Part shown: positions 8,231 to 16,896 of the stretch, piece after piece
How positions within the stretch are numbered: the stretch's first letter is position 1
How the letters are laid out: each line of letters begins with the position of its first letter
Assembly (NCBI GenBank): GCA_937949915.1
Contig: CALECP010000146.1
Location: 1 to 47,411, forward strand
Origin: an uncultured Anaerolineae bacterium
Lineage (GTDB): Bacteria; Chloroflexota; Anaerolineae; Promineifilales; Promineifilaceae
Length of the DNA: 47,411 nt
Reading direction: 5' to 3'
Position numbers and translations under genes: made by a program
Notes under the pieces: generated by a model
Told to the model about the DNA's origin: nothing
Databases searched by the model: none
What the model saw: the letters and a program-made list of their open reading frames with translations, nothing else

Positions 8231-10651
8231 ATGTCGATCCAACCCTTGACCGCCTCCCAACTCCGCCGTGTTTGTGACCCAGCCAGCTTCCCATTTGACA
8301 CCACGGCCGCACTAAAACCAAACGGCAACATTATCGGCCAGCCACGCGGCACACGCGCCATCGAATTTGGCATCGCCATGCAAAGTCCGGGCTACAACAT
8401 CTATATTCTGGGTAGCACAGGCACCGGCCGCACCACGTATATCAGCCGCTTTCTCAAAGAGAAATCACGGACACAAGCCACGCCAGACGACTGGGTTTAT
8501 GTGCAAAATTTTGCCATCCAACACCAGCCCCGCGCCATTGAGTTTCCGGCCGGAGAAGGCGCACTGTTCAAAAAGCGGATGGAAGAGCTGGTGCAGTGTC
8601 TCAAAGAAGATTTGCCCCGCGCCTTCTCGACAGAGGAGTATGAAGAAGCGGTCAACACGCTTTGGGACAAAGTTGAACTGACACAATCATTGCTGATGCG
8701 CGACATCGAACGCAAAGCGCGGGAACGCGGGTTTGCGCTGGTGCGCTCTGCGTCGGGGCTAACGGTGACACCGGTTGTCGATGGCGAAGTGATGTCGGCC
8801 GAACAGTACGACGTTCTCTCGATGGAGCAACAGAACAAACTCGACCAAAATCAAGAGTTTCTGGAGGGAATGCTGGAAGATTTGGTCAAAAAGACACGCC
8901 TCATTCGCCAAAATGCACGGGACGAACTGAAAGCACTAGATCGTGCCGTTGCGGTACAAGCGATAGCCCCCCACACCGACGCAATGGGCGAAGCATACGC
9001 CAAACATGAAGAAGTGCTGCTCTATTTGGGTGAGGTGCAAGAAGATGTACTGAACCATCTCGATGGTTTCCGGCCGAGTACAGAGGAAGGGGAGCAAAAA
9101 AAACAAGACCTGCAACGGTATGATGTCAACATGTTTGTTGACCACAGCAACACAGAAGGTGCGCCCGTCATCGTGGCACAAAACCCGACGTACAACAATT
9201 TGATCGGCCGCATCGAATTTGAAATGCGCGGCGGCATCATGTCCACCAAATTTACGCACATCAAACCGGGCAGCCTGCACCTTGCCAATGGTGGCTATCT
9301 CGTCATCGACGCAACCGAACTTATCTCACAGCCCGATTCATGGGAAGCACTGAAACGCGCTCTCAAAACAGGCGAGATATTTCTGCAACCGTATAACACA
9401 CTTGATGGCAGCCGCGTTTTGGCAAAATCGCTCGACCCCGAAGCGATTCCGCTCGACATTAAAATCGTTTTGCTGGGCAGCAGTGCGCTCTATTACACGT
9501 TGGTCGAAGTGGATGATGATTTTTCGTCGCTGTTCAAGGTGATGGCAGATTTCGGCACGACAATGACACGAAACGAGGAAAACGAACTCGCCTACGCTGG
9601 TTTTATCGCCCAGCTCTGTGCTGATGAGAAGCTGCTTCATTTTGACCGTGCGGCCGTCGCCCGTGTCATCGAATATGGTAGCGAGTTGGCAGAAGAGCAA
9701 GACAAATTAAGCACGCGCTTTAGCACCATCGCCGATCTTGTGCGCGAGTCCAGCTTTTGGGCAACCCATCACGGCCGCACACTTGTCTCTTTGCACGATG
9801 TCGAACACGCCATCAATGAATGGGTGTACCGCTCCAACAAAGTAGAAACGCTGATAGACGAACAGATCGAGAGCGACAGCTTACTCATCGTCACCACCGG
9901 GGAAACCGTCGGGCAGATCAATGGCTTGAGCGTTTTGGAAGCAGGCGAGTATGCGTTTGGTCGGCCGATGCGGATCACAGCACGCACGTACATGGGCAGC
10001 AATGGCATTGTCCAAATCGAGCGCGAGACAAGCATGGCCGACTCTGTGCATAACAAAGGGGTGATGACGATCACCGGCTACTTGGGCGGCATGTACGCAC
10101 ACGAACATGCCCTTTCGCTCTCGGCAAGCCTCACATTTGAGCAACTATATGGAGAGATCGCCGGGGACAGTGCCAGTTCTACAGAGCTATATGCGCTGAT
10201 TTCCAGTCTCTCCAATTTGCCGATCAAGCAAGGGATCGCGGTCACTGGTTCTGTCGATCAGCGTGGTACTATTCAGCCGATAGGCGGGGTCAACGAGAAG
10301 ATCGAGGGCTTTTTCCGTGTGTGTGAACAACGGGGCTTGACAGGCGAGCAGGGTGTCATTATTCCCCAGAGCAATGCGGCCGAACTGATGCTGGACAAAG
10401 ATGTGATCGCGGCCGTCGAAGCGGGTCAGTTCAGTGTGTGGGCGATCAATCATATCGACCAGGGGCTGGAGATATTGCTCGGCCGTCCGGCCGGACAGCG
10501 CGACGAAAACGGCGACTTCCCCACAGACAGCATTCACGCCCTTGCCGAGGATGAACTGTTACGCCTAGCGAAAAAAGAAAGCGGCGAAGACGAAAACGAG
10601 GATGAAGACAACGAAGAAAGCGATCCATTACCCGTAGCAAATGACGAGTAG
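8231..10651 (+). CDS. LonC-type Lon-like protease (AAA-like domain with degenerate Walker motifs and helical insertion + S16 Ser-Lys protease domain)
   Basis: 806-aa ORF. P-loop-like GSTGTGRTT (Arg in place of Lys). Walker-B-like YLVIDATEL (DA instead of DE). Long helical insertion at about residues 110-330. C-terminal Lon proteolytic domain with GDSASSTELYALISS (Ser) and GGVNEKIEGFF (Lys). Acidic tail. Confidence 0.85.
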   Translation: MSIQPLTASQLRRVCDPASFPFDTTAALKPNGNIIGQPRGTRAIEFGIAMQSPGYNIYILGSTGTGRTTYISRFLKEKSRTQATPDDWVYVQNFAIQHQPRAIEFPAGEGALFKKRMEELVQCLKEDLPRAFSTEEYEEAVNTLWDKVELTQSLLMRDIERKARERGFALVRSASGLTVTPVVDGEVMSAEQYDVLSMEQQNKLDQNQEFLEGMLEDLVKKTRLIRQNARDELKALDRAVAVQAIAPHTDAMGEAYAKHEEVLLYLGEVQEDVLNHLDGFRPSTEEGEQKKQDLQRYDVNMFVDHSNTEGAPVIVAQNPTYNNLIGRIEFEMRGGIMSTKFTHIKPGSLHLANGGYLVIDATELISQPDSWEALKRALKTGEIFLQPYNTLDGSRVLAKSLDPEAIPLDIKIVLLGSSALYYTLVEVDDDFSSLFKVMADFGTTMTRNEENELAYAGFIAQLCADEKLLHFDRAAVARVIEYGSELAEEQDKLSTRFSTIADLVRESSFWATHHGRTLVSLHDVEHAINEWVYRSNKVETLIDEQIESDSLLIVTTGETVGQINGLSVLEAGEYAFGRPMRITARTYMGSNGIVQIERETSMADSVHNKGVMTITGYLGGMYAHEHALSLSASLTFEQLYGEIAGDSASSTELYALISSLSNLPIKQGIAVTGSVDQRGTIQPIGGVNEKIEGFFRVCEQRGLTGEQGVIIPQSNAAELMLDKDVIAAVEAGQFSVWAINHIDQGLEILLGRPAGQRDENGDFPTDSIHALAEDELLRLAKKESGEDENEDEDNEESDPLPVANDE

Positions 10652-10689: not shown

Positions 10690-12348
10690 ATGACAAATAC
10701 AATCGACTTACTGACAAACGCAAAATGGCACGATCTAAACATCAATTGCAGCATTTTCACGCCACCGTATCCGGGGGAAATGGCGTTGCAGGTTCGTTTT
10801 TTCAAGCGGGTGACAGGCGCGGCCGGAGGCGGACAGGGTGCAAACGGTCAATTGATCGAATGGAGCAATAACACAGGCACGCATCTCGTCGGTGAACGCG
10901 CCTTCCATTCGGGGGCGACAGCGATCAGCGATATGCCGCTCGAAGATGTTTGTGGTGAGGCGGTTGTGATTGACTTGTCGGCCGAACTGTCCGACTACGG
11001 CTTCTATACCCCAGAAATGATCACCTCCAAAATCGACGTGAAAGCAGGGGATATTCTGATCATCAACACCGGCTACCACAAATATGCCTACGAAAATCCT
11101 GATGTAGTCAATGAGAACGCGCAAGGCGGCATCGAGAGCAAAGAGTTTGGCTTTTATTTGCGTCATCCGGGGCCGTCGGCCGACTTTTTCCAGTGGGCTA
11201 TCGACACAGGCATCAAGCTGATCGGGGTTGATTGCGGCTCGGCCGAGCATCCGATGAACACCAACCTACGCTATATGCACGCTCGTGAATTTGACAAAGC
11301 GGCCGCCAAATTACAAGAAACGCACGATCAAGAGTGGGACGACATGTTTCCGCCAGATGACTACTATAAATTGACGCATATCGACATGCCAAAGGCGCAT
11401 TTACGCTTACTCGAATCGCTCGGTGGGCAATTGAATGAAATTGGCACACGACGTATCTGGCTAATGGTGGGTGCGATTCCGTTTATGGAAGTGGAATCGG
11501 CGTGGTGTCGTGTGGCCGCACTGACTGCGCCCGATGGCATGAGCGACGACGATTTTATCGCCGCCATGCACACCGTAGACATGCTCGATCTGACGTTGCC
11601 GTTCTCTGTCCAAACGCCGCAATGGGCGAATTACGAGCCGCTCACATTGACGTACACAAAGCGGGTCGGCGGGCAGTATTTTGGGATGGGGCGCAATAAC
11701 GCGCATTGCAAAGCCAGCTTCCATTTGGCAACGCACATGGACGGCGAGATTCACTTTCACGCGGCCGGGCGTACCATCGGGCAAATGCCATTCGACTATT
11801 GGCGTGGGCAAGGTGTCGTCGCCGACATCAGCGAATTTGTGAGCGACACATCGGTGTACACCCCCGCCATGATCGAGAGCAAAATCGACGTGCAAGAGGG
11901 CGACATTTTGCTGCTCAAAACAGGCTGGCACAAATACGGCTGGAACAGCCCCGACAGCGACGAATTTCGCTACATGATCCGCCATCCCGGCCCATCGCCC
12001 GACTTCGCGCAATGGTGCATCGATAAAAAGATCAAATGGCTGGGCATCGACTGTGTGGCGATGGAACACCCAATGAACACGATTCAGCGTATCTTCCACC
12101 CGAAAACGTTTGAGGAAGCGAACCGCAAGCTGATCGAGCAGTACGGCGCGGATTGGGATACGGTGTACCCGCTCGACACGCACTATCAGGATATGCACCT
12201 CAATTTGTTCCCGAAAGGGATTGTCCACGTCGAGAATATCGGGGGGCAGATCGCGGAAATGGAGAGCGGCCGATACTTCATCAGCGCATTTGTCCAAAAA
12301 GGAATGGAAATGGCTTCATGCTGGCTACGAATGGTGATATTACAATGA
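10690..12348 (+). CDS. Tandem-duplicated putative cyclase / kynurenine-formamidase-like (PF04199-type) protein
   Basis: 552-aa ORF with AAGGAG upstream of ATG 10690. The two halves are homologous: YTPEMITSKIDVKAGDILIINTGYHKY / YTPAMIESKIDVQEGDILLLKTGWHKY; RHPGPSADFFQWAIDTGIKLIGVDCGSAEHPMNT / RHPGPSPDFAQWCIDKKIKWLGIDCVAMEHPMNT. The HxxTHxDxxxH metal motif is present only in the second half (FHLATHMDGEIHFH). Confidence 0.85.
   Translation: MTNTIDLLTNAKWHDLNINCSIFTPPYPGEMALQVRFFKRVTGAAGGGQGANGQLIEWSNNTGTHLVGERAFHSGATAISDMPLEDVCGEAVVIDLSAELSDYGFYTPEMITSKIDVKAGDILIINTGYHKYAYENPDVVNENAQGGIESKEFGFYLRHPGPSADFFQWAIDTGIKLIGVDCGSAEHPMNTNLRYMHAREFDKAAAKLQETHDQEWDDMFPPDDYYKLTHIDMPKAHLRLLESLGGQLNEIGTRRIWLMVGAIPFMEVESAWCRVAALTAPDGMSDDDFIAAMHTVDMLDLTLPFSVQTPQWANYEPLTLTYTKRVGGQYFGMGRNNAHCKASFHLATHMDGEIHFHAAGRTIGQMPFDYWRGQGVVADISEFVSDTSVYTPAMIESKIDVQEGDILLLKTGWHKYGWNSPDSDEFRYMIRHPGPSPDFAQWCIDKKIKWLGIDCVAMEHPMNTIQRIFHPKTFEEANRKLIEQYGADWDTVYPLDTHYQDMHLNLFPKGIVHVENIGGQIAEMESGRYFISAFVQKGMEMASCWLRMVILQ
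12304..12348 (+). repeat. Left copy of the 45-bp direct repeat (functional 3' end of the cyclase gene)
   Basis: ATGGAAATGGCTTCATGCTGGCTACGAATGGTGATATTACAATGA encodes MEMASCWLRMVILQ*. Its first 32 nt match 13486-13517 with 2 mismatches. Confidence 0.9.
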
Positions 12349-13484
12349 GTGATCGAAATAACTTGCGAGACTCCGCGCAAGAACAAGCGGAAATTGAAGA
12401 TAAACCGCGTGCAAGTCGAATAGATATTGAGTGGGGAGCAATAAACGCATTTCGAGAACTGCTTAGAGTTGCGTCCCGAGGTAATATGTCGCACTCAACC
12501 TACCAAAGTGCGATTGAGTTTGGGGGGAGTGTCTATCCTGATTTGCTTGGAGAGGATCGCAGCTTACTGAGACGAGCGCGAGAAAGCCGCCTCACGACTG
12601 AATATCGTCAAAAAGCCGGAGCGAAGCAACAGCTTGGTGAAGATGTCACTGCATTGCAACTTGCCGAGGAGGAATTGAGCGAAATCGAGAACTTGATCAA
12701 TGCCTCTGAATTCGGCGAAGCTAATGCTCTGAGGAGGAAGAAAGCAGATTTGTTGGAAAGTATCAATGAGTTAGACCCACCTGATGCTATTGAACACACG
12801 CTCATATTTCGAGATGTCAATCACGCAGATCGTAATCTACCGTCAATCCGAACTGAACATAACTTCCGCGAATTCAAATTACCAGACGATAATGTGCTTA
12901 GAATTACACTATATCATCCCAGTGTACCTGAACACATTTCTGGTGCAGACCTTATGTATGAGGTTCATGATATTAAGGCGAAAACTGTTAACGTTGTATT
13001 TATTCAGTACAAGATTTGGCATGAACGAACTATGTACTTATCTGATCCAAGAATGAATGCACAACTAGAAAAAATGAGAGAGCATACTTGTAAGGCAGGG
13101 CTGTGTAAAAATGATACAGTCGAATACCGTTTTCCTTACTGTGCAAGCTTCCTTAGACCAACCGATAAACTGCAATCTGCAGATCAAAGCTTGCGCTCTA
13201 CTGGTGAACATCTTCCGATATGCCGAATTGCGGAGTGTACTACTTTGGGACCAAAAGGTGGGGCAAAGCTTGAGTACAATGGCATAAAGAAAACCTCTCT
13301 TGCATATGATGTGTTCGAGGTCATGTTCAATCGAAAACGAATCGGTTCCAGAGCTTTATCATACACAGAGCTTGGGGAGATTTACGAAAAATTCCAGCTT
13401 CTACGTGAGCGGGATAGATTGCTGATCCATGCACAAGATTTCACGCCATTGTTACCTGAAACAGGTGATAACGAGAGTAATTAA
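12345..13484 (+). CDS. Hypothetical protein of an inserted cassette: N-terminal helical/coiled-coil half, C-terminal half with a possible PD-(D/E)xK-like (D...QxK) nuclease core and a Cys cluster
   Basis: ORF track gives 12153-13484. I start it at ATG 12345, which overlaps the cyclase stop (ATGA), because the upstream part lies inside the cyclase gene in another frame. GC is visibly lower than in the flanks and there is no CGGCCG. The candidate core is PEHISGADLMYEVHDIKAKTVNVVFIQYKIW. Cysteines: HTCKAGLCKN...YCASF...PICRIAEC. No family recognised with confidence. Confidence 0.7.
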   Translation: MSDRNNLRDSAQEQAEIEDKPRASRIDIEWGAINAFRELLRVASRGNMSHSTYQSAIEFGGSVYPDLLGEDRSLLRRARESRLTTEYRQKAGAKQQLGEDVTALQLAEEELSEIENLINASEFGEANALRRKKADLLESINELDPPDAIEHTLIFRDVNHADRNLPSIRTEHNFREFKLPDDNVLRITLYHPSVPEHISGADLMYEVHDIKAKTVNVVFIQYKIWHERTMYLSDPRMNAQLEKMREHTCKAGLCKNDTVEYRFPYCASFLRPTDKLQSADQSLRSTGEHLPICRIAECTTLGPKGGAKLEYNGIKKTSLAYDVFEVMFNRKRIGSRALSYTELGEIYEKFQLLRERDRLLIHAQDFTPLLPETGDNESN

Positions 13485-13485
13485 G

Positions 13486-13530
13486 ATGGAAATGGCTTCC
13501 TGCTGGCTACGCATGGTTGTCTATCAGTAA
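13486..13530 (+). repeat. Right copy of the 45-bp direct repeat (displaced, orphan 3' end of the cyclase gene)
   Basis: ATGGAAATGGCTTCCTGCTGGCTACGCATGGTTGTCTATCAGTAA encodes MEMASCWLRMVVYQ*. It begins 2 nt after the cassette stop codon and lies 1182 bp from the left copy. Confidence 0.9.
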
Positions 13531-13555
13531 ACGAAAGACATGCTATACTGAATTT

Positions 13556-13831
13556 ATGAATGCTGTGATTGAGATTCCAGAGGAGATTGCTGCTTCGATC
13601 AAACTCCCCAAACATCGGCTAAATGGGGAGTTGGTTAAGGAGTTGGCATTACAATTATACCGAGAGCGAATGATCTCATTCGCAAACGCACATCGGCTGG
13701 CGGGCATGAGTAAGGTCGCCTTTCATCATTTATTGGGCGACCGTCAAATTCCGCGCCATTATGGCGAAGATGCGTATGAACAAGATTTAGACGCATTGAC
13801 TGAATGGCGCAATGCAAACACAACAGTTTGA
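13556..13831 (+). CDS. UPF0175-family antitoxin-like protein (orphan; no PIN/DUF3368 partner downstream)
   Basis: From ATG 13556: MNAVIEIPEEIAASIKLPKHRLNGELVKELALQLYRERMISFANAHRLAGMSKVAFHHLLGDRQIP. This matches the UPF0175 pattern (IxLPxxL...ELAxxLYxxxxIS...A..LAGMS...F..LL....IP). TGCTATACT at 13541-13549 lies 6 nt before the ATG. Confidence 0.75.
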   Translation: MNAVIEIPEEIAASIKLPKHRLNGELVKELALQLYRERMISFANAHRLAGMSKVAFHHLLGDRQIPRHYGEDAYEQDLDALTEWRNANTTV

Positions 13832-13947: not shown

Positions 13948-14204
13948 TCAATAGTGGAATTTACAAGCCACAATGATCAACTGCTCATCAGTTACTTTGT
14001 AAACAAGTCGGTGTTTTTGGTTAATACGACGTGACCAATAGCCTGCATAATCGTGTTTTAATGGCTCTGGCTTTCCAATCCCCTCAAATGGGTTGCGTTT
14101 CGTTTCGATGATTAACCGAATCAGTCGGTTGAATATCTTTTGTCGGTTGAAGACCAATCGGTGAATTGGGTAAACGCATCAGGGTAAAAGACGATCTGTC
14201 TCAT
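13948..14204 (-). pseudogene. yoeB: YoeB/Txe-family toxin gene disrupted by a -1 frameshift in an A-run
   Basis: ATG 14204 overlaps the antitoxin stop (ATGA) and reads MRQIVFYPDAFTQFTDWSSTDKR, then hits a stop after 5 more codons. The next frame (ORF 13948-14157) continues ...IFNRLIRLIIETKRNPFEGIGKPEPLKHDYAGYWSRRINQKHRLVYKVTDEQLIIVACKFHY. This matches YoeB (TPFEGKGKPEPLKH...WSRRI...HRLVY...C..HY). The junction is at ACCGACAAAAGATATTC, about 14136-14145. Confidence 0.78.
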
Positions 14205-14440
14205 TGATAGTCGTCCATATCAACCGCGATAAGTTCCGCCCCAGCCTCAACGTCGGCAATCGCACGGAGTAGATACTCGCGGTTCGCTTCGGAGCTGTCT
14301 AGGTATTCCGTTTCATCCATTTCATCCAGAGTAGTCACTTCGATCTGAATCTGTCGATTTGCAAACATTTGGCGCAATCCGATGAGAAACTGTTGGTCTA
14401 GCTGGTCGCTGTGTAATGTTACTGTCATGTTCATCATCAT
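14201..14440 (-). CDS. YefM/Phd-like antitoxin (C-terminal toxin-binding region recognisable)
   Basis: ORF 14201-14518. The likely start is one of the clustered Met codons (14440-14428), just downstream of a TATAAT. The C-terminal DETEYLDSSEANREYLLRAIADVEAG resembles the YefM [21 protein letters not shown] region. It is coupled to yoeB by ATGA. Confidence 0.62.
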   Translation of the reverse strand: MMMNMTVTLHSDQLDQQFLIGLRQMFANRQIQIEVTTLDEMDETEYLDSSEANREYLLRAIADVEAGAELIAVDMDDYQ

Positions 14441-14608: not shown

Positions 14609-15148
14609 ATGAAAGGGATTGTTTTTACTGAATTTATCGAAATGGTGGAGGACACATTTGGCTGGGAGATGGCGGAAGATGTGTTGGAAGCGGCCGAACT
14701 GGAGTCGGGGGGCGTGTATACGGCCGTGGGAACATACTCCCACGAGGAAATCATCGCGCTGGTCGTAGAGTTGAGCAAGCGCACCGACATACCGGCCGAG
14801 ACATTGGTCAAAGCATTTGGCAAACATCTATTCAGCACATTTTCAGTCTCGCATCCTATTTTTTTGGATGGCATCGAGACAGCCTTTCAATTTTTGGGAC
14901 TGGTCGAAAACCACATTCATGTCGAAGTGCGAAAACTGTATCCAGATGCTGAGTTGCCATCTTTTGCAGTGGAAACAAATGGCAATGTGATGCTGATGAC
15001 CTATTCATCTGCGCGGCCGTTGGCCGATCTAGCCGAGGGATTGTTGGAGGCATGTATCGCACACTTTGACGAGCCGATCACACTGGCACGAAAAAATTTG
15101 GCAGATGATATGACGGCCGCGCAATTTACCCTGACGCTTGAGGCATAA
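14609..15148 (+). CDS. hnoX: H-NOX (heme nitric oxide/oxygen binding) sensor protein
   Basis: MKGIVFTEFIEMVEDTFG... with the proximal His region ENHIHVEVRKLYP and the YxSxR heme-propionate motif (YSSARP). 179 aa, typical stand-alone H-NOX size. AAAGAGG is upstream. Confidence 0.9.
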   Translation: MKGIVFTEFIEMVEDTFGWEMAEDVLEAAELESGGVYTAVGTYSHEEIIALVVELSKRTDIPAETLVKAFGKHLFSTFSVSHPIFLDGIETAFQFLGLVENHIHVEVRKLYPDAELPSFAVETNGNVMLMTYSSARPLADLAEGLLEACIAHFDEPITLARKNLADDMTAAQFTLTLEA

Positions 15149-15153
15149 GTTAG

Positions 15154-16896
15154 ATGAGTGCTATGAGTGTAGAAGACAAGCTGCACAGGCGCGTTAAACG
15201 CGAACGGGCCGCCCGCAAAGAAGCAGAAGCCATTCTTGAAAACAGGAGTCGTGAGCTTTATTTAGCCAATCAAGCGTTGCGCCAAATGCGCGATATGCTG
15301 GAAGTGCGCGTCGAGGAACGCACTATCGAACTGCAATTGGCGATGGAGCAAGCACGGGCGGCCGATCAAGCAAAATCAGCATTTCTAGCCAATATGAGCC
15401 ACGAAATTCGCACACCGTTAAATGCGGTGATCGGCTTGTCTGAACTATTGCTGGAAACAGAACTGGACGAGGAACAAGCTGATTTTATTAACACCGTCCG
15501 CACCAGTGGCAACAGTTTACTCACCATCATCAACGATATTCTTGACTTTTCTAAAATCGAGGCGGGAAAATTAGAACTAGAGGTGATGCCATTTAATGTT
15601 TACAGTTGTATCGAAGATGTGCTAGATATGTTTGCACCCACGGCCGGGAAGAAACAGATCGATCTCGCTTATGTGCTTGAGCCGACTGTGCCAGATACAT
15701 TGATCGGCGATGTGGTTCGCCTGCGCCAAGTGTTGGTCAATCTAGTGAGCAATGCGGTGAAATTTACCGAAACAGGCGAAGTCGTCGTGTCAGCCAATGC
15801 GCGTCCCATCGAACCGGGCAGCAGTTGGTACAACATCATTTTTTCAGTGCGCGATACAGGTGCAGGGATTCCGGCCGACCGTCTCAATCGTCTATTCAAA
15901 TCATTTAGCCAAGTCGATACCAGCATCACCCGCCGCTACGGTGGCACCGGACTGGGCTTGGCGATCAGCAAGCGCCTGGTCAATTTGATGGGAGGCGACC
16001 TCACCGTCGAAAGTATAGTCGGCACAGGCAGCACCTTCACATTTGATTTCGATGCAGAAGCAAGCGATTCCTTGATCGAATCACAGGTACGCGATGAACA
16101 TGCCGCGCTGTATGGGCTAAAAATGTTGGTGGTTGACGACAACGGCACAAACCGCTTTTTGGTAGAACGCCATGCCAGTACATGGGGGATGATCGCGCAA
16201 CCGGTAGAATCGGCACATGAAGCATTGCAACTCCTGCAAACAGCGTCATTTGATGTCATCATTTTGGACGTACACATGCCCCATGTCGATGGTCTAACAC
16301 TCGGCCGACTATGCAACAAACTGTATCCTGATTTGCCGATCATCTTTCTCAGTTCATCGACTCGGAGCGAACTGACGCTCGATGATCTGACCTACGCATC
16401 GTTTTTGCACAAGCCACTCAAACCGGCTCAATTATTGAATGCGTTGCTGCGCCTCTTTATGCCAAGCGATCAAACGCCGATTGTCATTCCGCCGCACAAC
16501 CCAAACCTAGCAAGCGCAAAAAATATGCCCCCGATGCGAATCGCGGTAGCAGAAGATAATCCTGTCAATCAAAAAGTGATCGGTTTGATGTTGGCTAGTT
16601 TGGGCTATACGGCCGACATTGTGGACGACGGCCGTCAATTGATCACGCTCTTGCGACAAAAAACGGTCGATGTCGTGTTGATGGATGTGCAGATGCCCAA
16701 CATGGATGGTATTCAGACAACCCGGCACATCCGCGAGCAGTTTCCGGCCGACCAGCAGCCGCATATCATCGCCCTCACCGCCCATGCGCTATCCGGTTCG
16801 CGGGAACAATTTTTGGCGGCCGGAATGGACGATTATTTAAGCAAGCCGATAGAAAAAGCAGCCCTCATCAAAAAGCTAAAAACATCGGCCGCGTAA
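15154..16896 (+). CDS. Hybrid sensor histidine kinase (coiled coil-HisKA-HATPase_c-REC-REC), H-NOX-associated
   Basis: H-box [20 protein letters not shown] boxes [31 protein letters not shown]. Two receiver domains ([11 protein letters not shown]...[11 protein letters not shown]...HKP; [11 protein letters not shown]...[11 protein letters not shown]...LSKP). No TM or sensor domain. Starts 5 nt after hnoX. Confidence 0.92.

Follow-up and report, generated by a model that had tools for sequence, protein, structure and literature searches.

A 47,411-nucleotide (nt) stretch of DNA from an uncultured Anaerolineae bacterium of the family Promineifilaceae (GenBank assembly GCA_937949915.1, contig CALECP010000146.1), referred to here in its full length as the window, carries on the forward strand at 12345-13484 a gene for a protein of 379 amino acids (aa) that, on balance, we consider to be a self-contained, single-gene anti-phage defence nuclease. 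We infer both the nuclease activity and the role in defence, from a predicted fold, from conserved residues and from the genetic surroundings of the homologues. An earlier note on this DNA, made from the letters alone, had proposed a candidate stand-alone defence nuclease. As an interpretation this proposal is supported, and none of the three tests run that could bear on its refutation went against it: no confident match to a housekeeping or other non-nuclease family was found in Pfam, NCBIfam, PHROGs, PADLOC or the PDB sequences, structure prediction gave a PD-(D/E)xK fold for the C-terminal half, and the homologues occur in accessory and defence-associated settings.

The open reading frame (ORF) at 12345-13484 translates into 379 aa followed by a stop codon, in agreement with the earlier note. 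Longer readings are possible from TTG 12153 or ATG 12318, and the gene caller chose the latter, which gives 388 aa (P0001). We prefer ATG 12345 as the start because the alignment with P0002, the closest homologue among those listed (~60% identity), begins at this methionine and because a GGTGA sequence is located 7 nt upstream. The same ATG overlaps with the TGA stop codon of the upstream gene, which encodes a 552-aa double-cyclase protein, in the form ATGA. The GC content of the gene is 0.435 versus 0.524 for the window, its GC content at third codon positions (GC3) is 0.37 versus 0.55-0.66 in the neighbouring genes, and the lowest-GC stretch of 1,140 bp in the entire 47-kb window begins at 12851, inside the gene, all of which agrees with the earlier description of a foreign low-GC insert.

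The protein had been described as belonging to no named family, and the library searches confirmed this. Pfam gave no match (the best, at E 0.12, was a chance similarity to CHASE8), NCBIfam and PHROGs gave none either, and PADLOC-DB 2.0.0 contained no catalogued defence family that matched, with zero families at E <= 1. Against the PDB sequences, neither the full protein, the family profile nor a domain-only profile found a real match, the output being coiled-coil noise or one chance match, and a domain scan of the protein detected no transmembrane or signalling domain. Relatives were nevertheless easy to find. A word-indexed search of 5.8 billion proteins returned 305, and the 120 listed are mostly 350-370 aa long, with ~90% coverage and 43-62% identity. 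An exhaustive profile search of 1.84 billion cluster representatives (clusters at 50% identity) yielded 379 clusters at E <= 1e-3, and the best 150 of these 379 representatives are all full-length family members or fragments, 116-455 aa in length, none of them fused with another architecture. A Pfam match to ERCC4 turned up in two of the 120 members (E 0.0066). The family is spread over at least six phyla, those named for it including Bacteroidota, Cyanobacteria, Planctomycetota and Acidobacteriota. Named hosts comprise Vibrio (with V. cholerae, V. vulnificus and V. parahaemolyticus), Aeromonas, Edwardsiella, Klebsiella, Salmonella, Citrobacter, Pectobacterium, Shewanella, Escherichia coli and Pseudomonas syringae, together with Burkholderia, Bordetella, Aquimarina, a cyanobacterium, a planctomycete and an acidobacterium. 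The source names of the members listed read 'hypothetical' or 'uncharacterised protein', with the single exception of an automatic 'C3H1-type domain' label. As judged by sequence comparison, this is an unnamed and widely transferred family of proteins of about 355-400 aa.

The full-length AlphaFold2 (AF2) model, with a predicted local distance difference test score (pLDDT) of 74.9, shows helices up to about aa 158 followed by an alpha/beta domain. The earlier note had given the N-terminal ~190 residues as helical, which holds for the start of the protein, but the predicted helices end about 30 residues sooner. The all-helical N-terminal domain, assigned from the AF2 secondary structure and without a match to a known domain, covers aa 1-147 (12345-12785, forward strand, like all segments of the gene below), with helices at 5-43, 53-63, 82-96, 103-120 and 127-143. 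It holds a conserved block at about aa 25-91 (E29, W30, R37, Y53, P65, L68, S73, E80 and A91), followed by a less conserved helical hairpin. It is followed by the predicted PD-(D/E)xK nuclease core, aa 148-247 (12786-13085), which was delimited using a separate domain model, Foldseek and conservation and is composed of a helix at 150-159 (with E150 and D157), strands at 184-189, 203-209 (with D202 and E206 at its start) and 214-226 (with Q221 and K223), and a helix at 235-247. With a strand at 268-274, beyond this segment, the elements follow the alpha-beta-beta-beta-alpha-beta order of PD-(D/E)xK nucleases. A cysteine cluster with conserved RFP and RPTDxLQ motifs occupies aa 249-298 (13089-13238; C249, C254, C266, H289, C293 and a variable C298), and it is followed by a C-terminal alpha/beta subdomain at aa 299-366 (13239-13442), recognised from its pLDDT of 90-95 and from conservation, in which G334-S335 is invariant and F324, F328, Y347 and Q364 are conserved.

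When the full-length AF2 model was compared with the PDB by Foldseek, nothing significant was found, as the long helices dominated the search. The domain model, covering aa 140-379 and built from 120 sequences, has a mean pLDDT of 78.5, rising to 90-95 over aa 200-249 and 289-349. With E 2.5e-3, a probability of 0.99 and a target-normalised TM-score (TMt) of 0.47, the Hjc-type Holliday-junction resolvase 2eo0 ranks first among its PDB matches, and PD-(D/E)xK nucleases fill 13 of the 20 top PDB rows, these being Hjc, RecU, HinP1I, MspI, NhoI, SPARDA and PaqCI, with the RecU structure 1zp7 reaching a probability of 0.77 (TMt 0.42). Of the viral models in BFVD, two unnamed phage proteins score highest (probability 0.99 with TMt 0.55-0.59), and herpesvirus UL24 and Holliday-junction resolvases of phages come next. 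Together, the PDB rows and the BFVD matches support the PD-(D/E)xK-like core that had been suspected from the sequence. Two more specific suggestions were not confirmed. A link to Mrr-like nucleases found no support, with no Mrr_cat domain in the window protein or in the 120 members at E <= 10. The variable N-domain typical of Shedu does not apply either, as the N-domain is homologous throughout the family and the architecture is uniform in the best 150 of the 379 representatives.

The E...D...QxK arrangement on which the earlier note had based its proposal is present at aa 195-225 (PEHISGADLMYEVHDIKAKTVNVVFIQYKIW, in short form PEHISGADLMYEV...FIQYKIW), a stretch that holds E196, D202 and Q221-Y-K223. 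D202 and Q221-x-K223 are situated on a predicted beta2-beta3 hairpin with a pLDDT above 90. In alignments of 32 and of 120 sequences the invariant or nearly invariant positions are E150, D157, R186, H191, P192, E196, G200, D202, Y205, E206, Q221, Y222, K223 and W225 in the core, C249, C254, R262-F-P, C266, P272-T-D-x-L-Q, G287, H289 and C293 in the cysteine region, and G334-S335 and Q364 towards the C-terminus. Conservation was also determined in a divergent set of family representatives at 22-43% identity. In this set, including its members at 22-30% identity, G200, C249, C254, C293 and G334-S335 are invariant, and E150, D157, H191, E196, D202, Y205, E206, Q221, Y222, K223 and C266 are at least 90% conserved. 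Since the residues are retained in the 32-sequence, the 120-sequence and the 22-43%-identity sets, they are not chance features of one sequence. The cysteine cluster had been noticed before as well and is indeed present, with residues C249, C254, C266, C293 and C298, of which the first four are conserved and C298 is replaced in 3 of the 32 aligned sequences. The four conserved cysteines probably bind a metal, which may be zinc or belong to an iron-sulphur (Fe-S) cluster. Over the first 90 residues, conservation is strong in closer members and weak in distant ones, and homology extends throughout.

The homologues travel in different vehicles. In a V. cholerae contig the gene belongs to an integron array whose short cassettes share one strand, and the V. 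cholerae repeats (VCR, the attC sites) that enclose it are 1,235 bp apart, with this gene as their only content. In Citrobacter and E. coli it is located 3' of the alpha primase-helicase gene in a complete P4-like satellite with the gene order int, psu, delta, sid-like, alpA, ash, DUF5375, alpha, and in Edwardsiella it follows a degraded P4-like element that adjoins a type I-E CRISPR-Cas locus. The place of the gene in P4-like satellites is between the primase gene and the right attachment site, attR, and in E. coli 63-2 a 22-nt attachment-site (att) repeat (positions 2259 and 13408 of locus L097) puts it inside the satellite. Among 5,426 complete E. coli genomes 4 carry the gene, one copy each, and a related 3' end of alpha is present in 1,093 genomes of the same set, so that ~1,090 lack the family gene. 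Strain KL53 displays a clean empty configuration of this site, and the E. coli cargo is a discrete module of ~1.48 kb between the alpha terminator and a series of TGAACAG repeats. The classic hotspot of P4 is located between psu and int (PMC9122126), and the primase-att position has been reported as a minor defence hotspot (PMC13586616), for which reason we dropped the idea that another cargo position in P4-like satellites would be new. The 379-aa protein fits none of the new systems that this 2026 P4 paper names, nor does it fit any of the 16 systems that Darracq et al. (bioRxiv 10.1101/2024.07.02.601686) described from V. cholerae cassettes. In the satellite of E. coli 63-2, the int-psu hotspot is occupied as well, by a pair of genes for an AAA ATPase and an HNH endonuclease (L097, 3491-5384), so both of its cargo positions are filled. 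At the locus of P0002 (L179, 1-1992), 27 bp separate the gene from the stop of a gyrA-like gene before it, and a hairpin comes after it, which makes this another very tight insertion of a lone gene behind a core gene. Searches of plasmid and phage collections with tblastn gave no family match, and among the 2.9 million viral contigs of IMG/VR one matched, at its end. The spacing of the upstream ORFs resembles the P4-like remnant of Edwardsiella, and this contig may therefore be a satellite rather than a phage.

The genes next to the homologues include known defence genes. An OLD-TOPRIM ATPase and a UvrD helicase were found beside the homologue in Aquimarina, GajA and GajB beside those in two metagenomic loci, a P2-Old-like nuclease, as well as a cytosine methyltransferase with a helicase, beside others, and two DNA methyltransferases in Burkholderia. 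Further neighbours include Type I restriction-modification (RM) genes, UG5 reverse transcriptases (DRT), PD-T4-6 and mads genes. For a quantitative comparison, the same ORF calling was applied to every set, and three ORFs to either side of the target were matched to PADLOC models at E <= 1e-5. The neighbours of the homologues matched 266 models with 104 ORFs in a first set and 431 models with 78 ORFs in a second set, and the control, consisting of 104 ORFs around cyclase orthologues, matched 14 models, all of them single matches and the best at E 5e-28. This amounts to a contrast of about 20-30-fold, in a metric that is inflated by redundant models and for which ORFs were called naively. The earlier note had asked for the neighbourhoods of homologues, and these are accessory and defence-associated, with an integron cassette, P4-like cargo, and Gabija, Old, RM, CRISPR and DRT neighbours in contrast to a nearly empty control.

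Across 11 contexts with precomputed or RefSeq gene annotation, and ~40 metagenomic contexts with ORFs called here, there was no conserved partner gene. An adjacent antitoxin gene is likewise not conserved beside the homologues examined, and the UPF0175 gene of the window lies beyond the boundary of the repeat described below and is absent at the other loci. OLD-family systems are found directly beside homologues at several unrelated loci, about 5 of 50 (L099 2882-6683, L115 2267-5969, L095 7107-9894 and L110 5549-7312), on the same strand and in varying order. They are Gabija GajA/GajB, with E values down to 1e-284, and a P2-Old-like nuclease, and their adjacency amounts to co-localisation, not to an operon. 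We rejected an obligate partnership with Gabija because gene order varies and most loci are without it. Because no gene is conserved beside the family and the order relative to Gabija varies, we consider the gene to be a stand-alone unit.

In the window, the boundaries of the insertion can be read to the nucleotide. Its target is the gene at 10690-12348 (forward strand) for the 552-aa protein, which has two Cyclase (PF04199) domains (Pfam E 1.1e-55). A repeat search revealed two direct copies of a 32-nt sequence, identical at 30 of 32 nt and spaced 1,182 bp apart, that bracket the ORF from 9 nt before its ATG to 1 nt after its stop and enclose only this gene. The left copy (12304-12335) now forms the last cyclase codons (...MEMASCWLRMV-ILQ, stop). 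The right copy (13486-13517), with the run to an in-frame TAA that extends the feature to 13530, represents the cyclase gene's original 3' end, now displaced (MEMASCWLRMVVYQ, stop). The repeat corresponds to the last 11 cyclase codons, and both copies reach an in-frame stop three codons further on, with different ends (...MVILQ on the left, ...MVVYQ on the right). Both mismatches are synonymous C-to-A changes at third codon positions in the left copy, and the GC3 of the cyclase gene drops from 0.67-0.80 to 0.38 in its last 13 codons only. From these changes and the collapse in GC3, the left copy appears to be derived from the AT-rich element and the right copy to be the native end. The cyclase orthologue in a Cellvibrionaceae metagenome-assembled genome (MAG) stops at the same position (...MASCWARFVAFK, stop). 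As uninterrupted sequence, the empty target site would read ATGGAAATGGCTTCCTGCTGGCTACGCATGGT. It was not found by way of the cyclase orthologues, the nearest relative being 77% identical and having a different downstream gene.

In the simplest reading, the window copy would have arisen from a circle of ~1.18 kb that integrated through a short match in the last 11 cyclase codons, by a Campbell-type event or with a recombinase acting in trans, and the insert would have supplied a replacement 3' end for the cyclase gene, as some elements do for their targets. No integrase was found in the window (no P4-int-like sequence), and a third copy of the 32-nt repeat was found nowhere. There is no attC-like palindrome at the window copy, where 1 nt separates the stop from the repeat, and it is therefore not an integron gene cassette, as the V. 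cholerae homologue is. Six other homologue loci have no flanking direct repeats, integron attC sites excepted, and the repeat-bounded insertion is thus a property of the window copy and not of the family. On the forward strand no promoter-like or terminator-like site was found between the cyclase gene and the inserted gene, which suggests co-transcription, and the inserted gene is probably expressed by transcription that continues from the cyclase gene. It is rare for the exact limits of such a recent gene gain to be this clear.

Several observations weigh against a defence nuclease. In the PDB search with the domain model no match reached E <= 1e-3, and no sequence or profile link to any PD-(D/E)xK family emerged from Pfam with the 120 members, from hhalign against EcoKMrr or from the PDB profile searches. 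Even at E <= 10, Pfam found no consistent nuclease family among these members, only zf-C4H2 and leucine-zipper noise, and hhalign of the family profile against EcoKMrr gave a probability of 0.2%, i.e. no relationship. Model confidence over the cysteine region is a pLDDT of 71-79 only, and the active site was placed by the predicted order of elements. Some homologues are solitary among housekeeping genes, such as the one downstream of gyrA and those at Aeromonas and Pectobacterium loci, and in the window the genes flanking the insert are metabolic or signalling genes, with toxin-antitoxin neighbours that have decayed. The inflation of the neighbour metric belongs here too. Literature searches, accession searches included, turned up no paper on the family and no experimental report of phage protection by one of its members. 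Because no match reached E <= 1e-3 and no sequence-profile link leads to nucleases, we regard a PD-(D/E)xK fold of the C-terminal half as probable, not certain, and hold it with moderate confidence. The predicted order of elements puts the conserved residues where the canonical active site is located.

If the protein is a defence nuclease, its C-terminal half would be a Mg2+-dependent PD-(D/E)xK endonuclease whose active site combines E150 from helix 1, D202 and E206 from where strand 2 begins, and the Q221-x-K223 motif of strand 3. Next to the core, a structural metal would be bound by C249, C254, C266 and C293 and perhaps also by H289, and the conserved helical N-terminal domain would dimerise the enzyme and select its target. 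Such an enzyme may cleave invading DNA directly, in the manner of Type IV restriction enzymes or of resolvases, after recognising an invariant feature, for instance base modification or the structure of branched or replicating DNA. Direct, target-selective cleavage is favoured over the sensing of a fast-evolving phage protein because both domains are conserved across phyla, there is no immunity or partner gene, and the nearest structures are resolvases and restriction enzymes.

The main rival keeps the fold and changes the outcome. The protein would then be an abortive-infection or toxin-like effector, held inactive, for example by its N-domain or its oligomeric state, and infection would switch on indiscriminate degradation of host and phage nucleic acids, so that the cell dies or stops growing. 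Lysis or growth arrest is the outcome with many cassette defences that consist of a single gene, several of them nuclease fusions (bioRxiv 10.1101/2024.07.02.601686). The gene is found together with other abortive-type systems and with toxin-antitoxin genes, and the collateral nuclease SPARDA is among the structural neighbours. However, no antitoxin, sensor or partner is conserved beside the gene, no transmembrane or signalling domain was detected, and the conservation of both domains between phyla, at ~45% identity, fits an invariant target better than variable phage proteins. The computed data do not separate direct from abortive action, and we consider the abortive mode unlikely, though it is the alternative that deserves most attention. 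A different kind of resemblance underlies the possibility that the gene has no role in defence and encodes a structure-specific DNA-processing or regulatory protein of mobile elements, such as a resolvase-like factor for the replication of satellites or cassettes, or that it encodes a catalytically different protein whose likeness to nucleases is superficial. The best structural matches are Holliday-junction resolvases, the Foldseek E values are weak, there is no nuclease link at the sequence level, and in P4-like satellites the gene is situated beside the primase gene and the TGAACAG repeats, which resemble a replication origin. These satellites can do without it, though, as only 4 of ~1,093 E. 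coli genomes with a P4-like primase carry the gene, and it occurs equally in integron arrays and on the bare chromosome, in neighbourhoods strongly enriched in defence genes compared to the control. A non-defence role therefore seems improbable to us.

The lone-gene insertions raise yet another explanation, that of a selfish mobile nuclease which, like a homing endonuclease or an addiction module, promotes or stabilises its own insertion. PD-(D/E)xK homing endonucleases exist, as does the TnsA transposase subunit with its D...QxK site, and such an activity would explain precise insertions at the ends of conserved genes, as in the window, where the insertion is extremely tight (9 nt and 1 nt), has a 32-nt repeat and regenerates the 3' end of its target, and as in other copies, which are found 27 bp after gyrA or as clean modules of 1.2-1.5 kb. 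Flanking repeats are missing at the six other loci (integron attC excepted), however, and the insertion sites have no common target sequence. Integrons and P4-like satellites, with recombinases of their own, account for mobility. The four E. coli carriers have one copy per genome, phage genomes, in which free-standing homing genes do well, are essentially free of the gene, and Pfam gave no TnsA or transposase match. We give this explanation little weight. Direct cleavage of invading DNA by a stand-alone enzyme remains the reading we favour.

Genes for stand-alone PD-(D/E)xK nucleases are already known from defence islands, from integron cassettes and from hotspots in satellites. What appears to be new, as far as sequence can tell, is an uncatalogued family with an unusual combination of domains. 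A bolder form of the proposal is a new three-module immune system, consisting of the helical N-domain, the D...QxK core and the Cys4 site, that senses an invariant DNA feature in a way unlike known Type IV or Shedu systems, combined with an undescribed kind of mobility in which a promoter-less circle of ~1.2 kb enters the 3' end of a host gene via a 32-bp match, restores the reading frame and hijacks transcription. This is speculative, and we would sooner expect it to be wrong than right.

The other genes around the insertion were inspected as well. The earlier note had placed two toxin-antitoxin loci directly beside the insert, and toxin-antitoxin-type genes are indeed adjacent, but both loci are degenerate. 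A UPF0175-family antitoxin-like gene is located at 13517-13831 (forward strand; Pfam E 2e-21), with ATG 13556 as its likely real start and no PIN or other toxin partner downstream, and before the insertion it would have directly followed the cyclase gene. The yoeB-like toxin gene at 13948-14215 (reverse strand) is frameshifted, with its N-terminal part (MRQIVFYPDAFTQFTDWSSTDKR...) and the Pfam-matching rest (...FNRLIRLIIETKRNPFEG...) in different frames, and the YefM-like antitoxin gene upstream of it (~14201-14440, reverse strand) looks intact. This locus is either a decaying toxin-antitoxin locus or the product of a sequencing error. Further to the right, at 14609-16896 (forward strand), an H-NOX gene (haem-NO-binding, Pfam E 1e-37) is directly followed by a 580-aa ORF whose sequence reads like a hybrid histidine kinase. 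The two would make a typical nitric-oxide sensing pair, and they form the right edge of the low-GC islet. To the left of the cyclase gene, the C-terminal protease part of an 806-aa Lon-like protease (8231-10651, forward strand) gave a weak PADLOC match to BrxL (E 0.0013). No other BREX genes were seen, and it is probably not a defence gene. The closest relatives of the cyclase gene (60-74% aa identity; loci L013-L092) come almost entirely from Chloroflexota MAGs (Anaerolineae, Ardenticatenaceae), and the single gammaproteobacterial relative found, at 77%, is the one in the Cellvibrionaceae MAG, which suggests that the cyclase gene may also have been transferred between phyla.

The family is large, is present in major pathogens and has been missed by every annotation and defence library tested here. 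If it does protect against phages, it would add a compact one-gene nuclease system to the defence catalogue, account for hitherto unexplained cargo, both at the primase-att hotspot of P4-like satellites and in chromosomal integrons, and provide a simple model for how a lone nuclease avoids damage to its own cell. If it does not, the role of a nuclease-like gene that is both abundant and mobile would still call for an explanation. Another candidate nuclease defence gene will not greatly surprise a specialist, but this one is strong and easily testable.

Among known proteins, the best structural matches to the C-terminal domain are the Hjc-type resolvases of archaea and the RecU resolvases of bacteria, which are minimal PD-(D/E)xK nucleases. 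The domain shares with them a helix with an acidic residue, a beta hairpin with D and (E/Q)xK, and a following helix. Unlike these resolvases, with which it has no detectable sequence similarity, the 379-aa protein is 2-3 times larger, owing to the helical N-domain, the cysteine cluster and the C-terminal subdomain, and its distribution is patchy and accessory, not that of a housekeeping protein. The D-(x18)-QxK arrangement has its precedent in solitary PD-(D/E)xK restriction enzymes of the modification-dependent (Type IV) kind, such as Mrr and MspJI, and the D...QxK variant is used by TnsA, Mrr and MspJI-type enzymes. The restriction enzymes HinP1I, MspI and NhoI are among the top structural matches. 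Like solitary restriction enzymes, the gene is found in defence islands and at most loci without an adjacent cognate methyltransferase. In contrast to Type IV enzymes, there is no match to a restriction-enzyme hidden Markov model even at E <= 10 with 120 members, and no known reader of modified bases (SRA, EVE or winged helix) was recognised in the N-terminal half. Cas4, AddB and Dna2-type Fe-S nucleases likewise combine a PD-(D/E)xK core, here a predicted one, with four invariant cysteines nearby. Cas4 and AddB have one cysteine upstream and three downstream, whereas the spacing here is C-x4-C-x11-C-x26-C, all downstream of the QxK strand, and the Cas4 models included in PADLOC did not match the protein.

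Shedu (SduA, DUF4263) is likewise encoded by a single gene and has a C-terminal PD-(D/E)xK nuclease, which in the family is a predicted one, with an N-terminal regulatory or sensor region before it. The family differs in having no match to SduA in PADLOC or to DUF4263 in Pfam, and its N-domain is homologous throughout, not swapped. Shedu is not known to have a Cys4 cluster. In vehicle and scale, the single-gene cassettes of V. cholerae integrons that encode the defences Epona, Divona and Damona (bioRxiv 10.1101/2024.07.02.601686) are comparable. These are nuclease-type effectors that were not detected by DefenseFinder and PADLOC, with Mrr_cat plus holin, DUF4365 plus RecB-like, or DUF6602 domains. 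None of these domains matches the family of the 379-aa protein.

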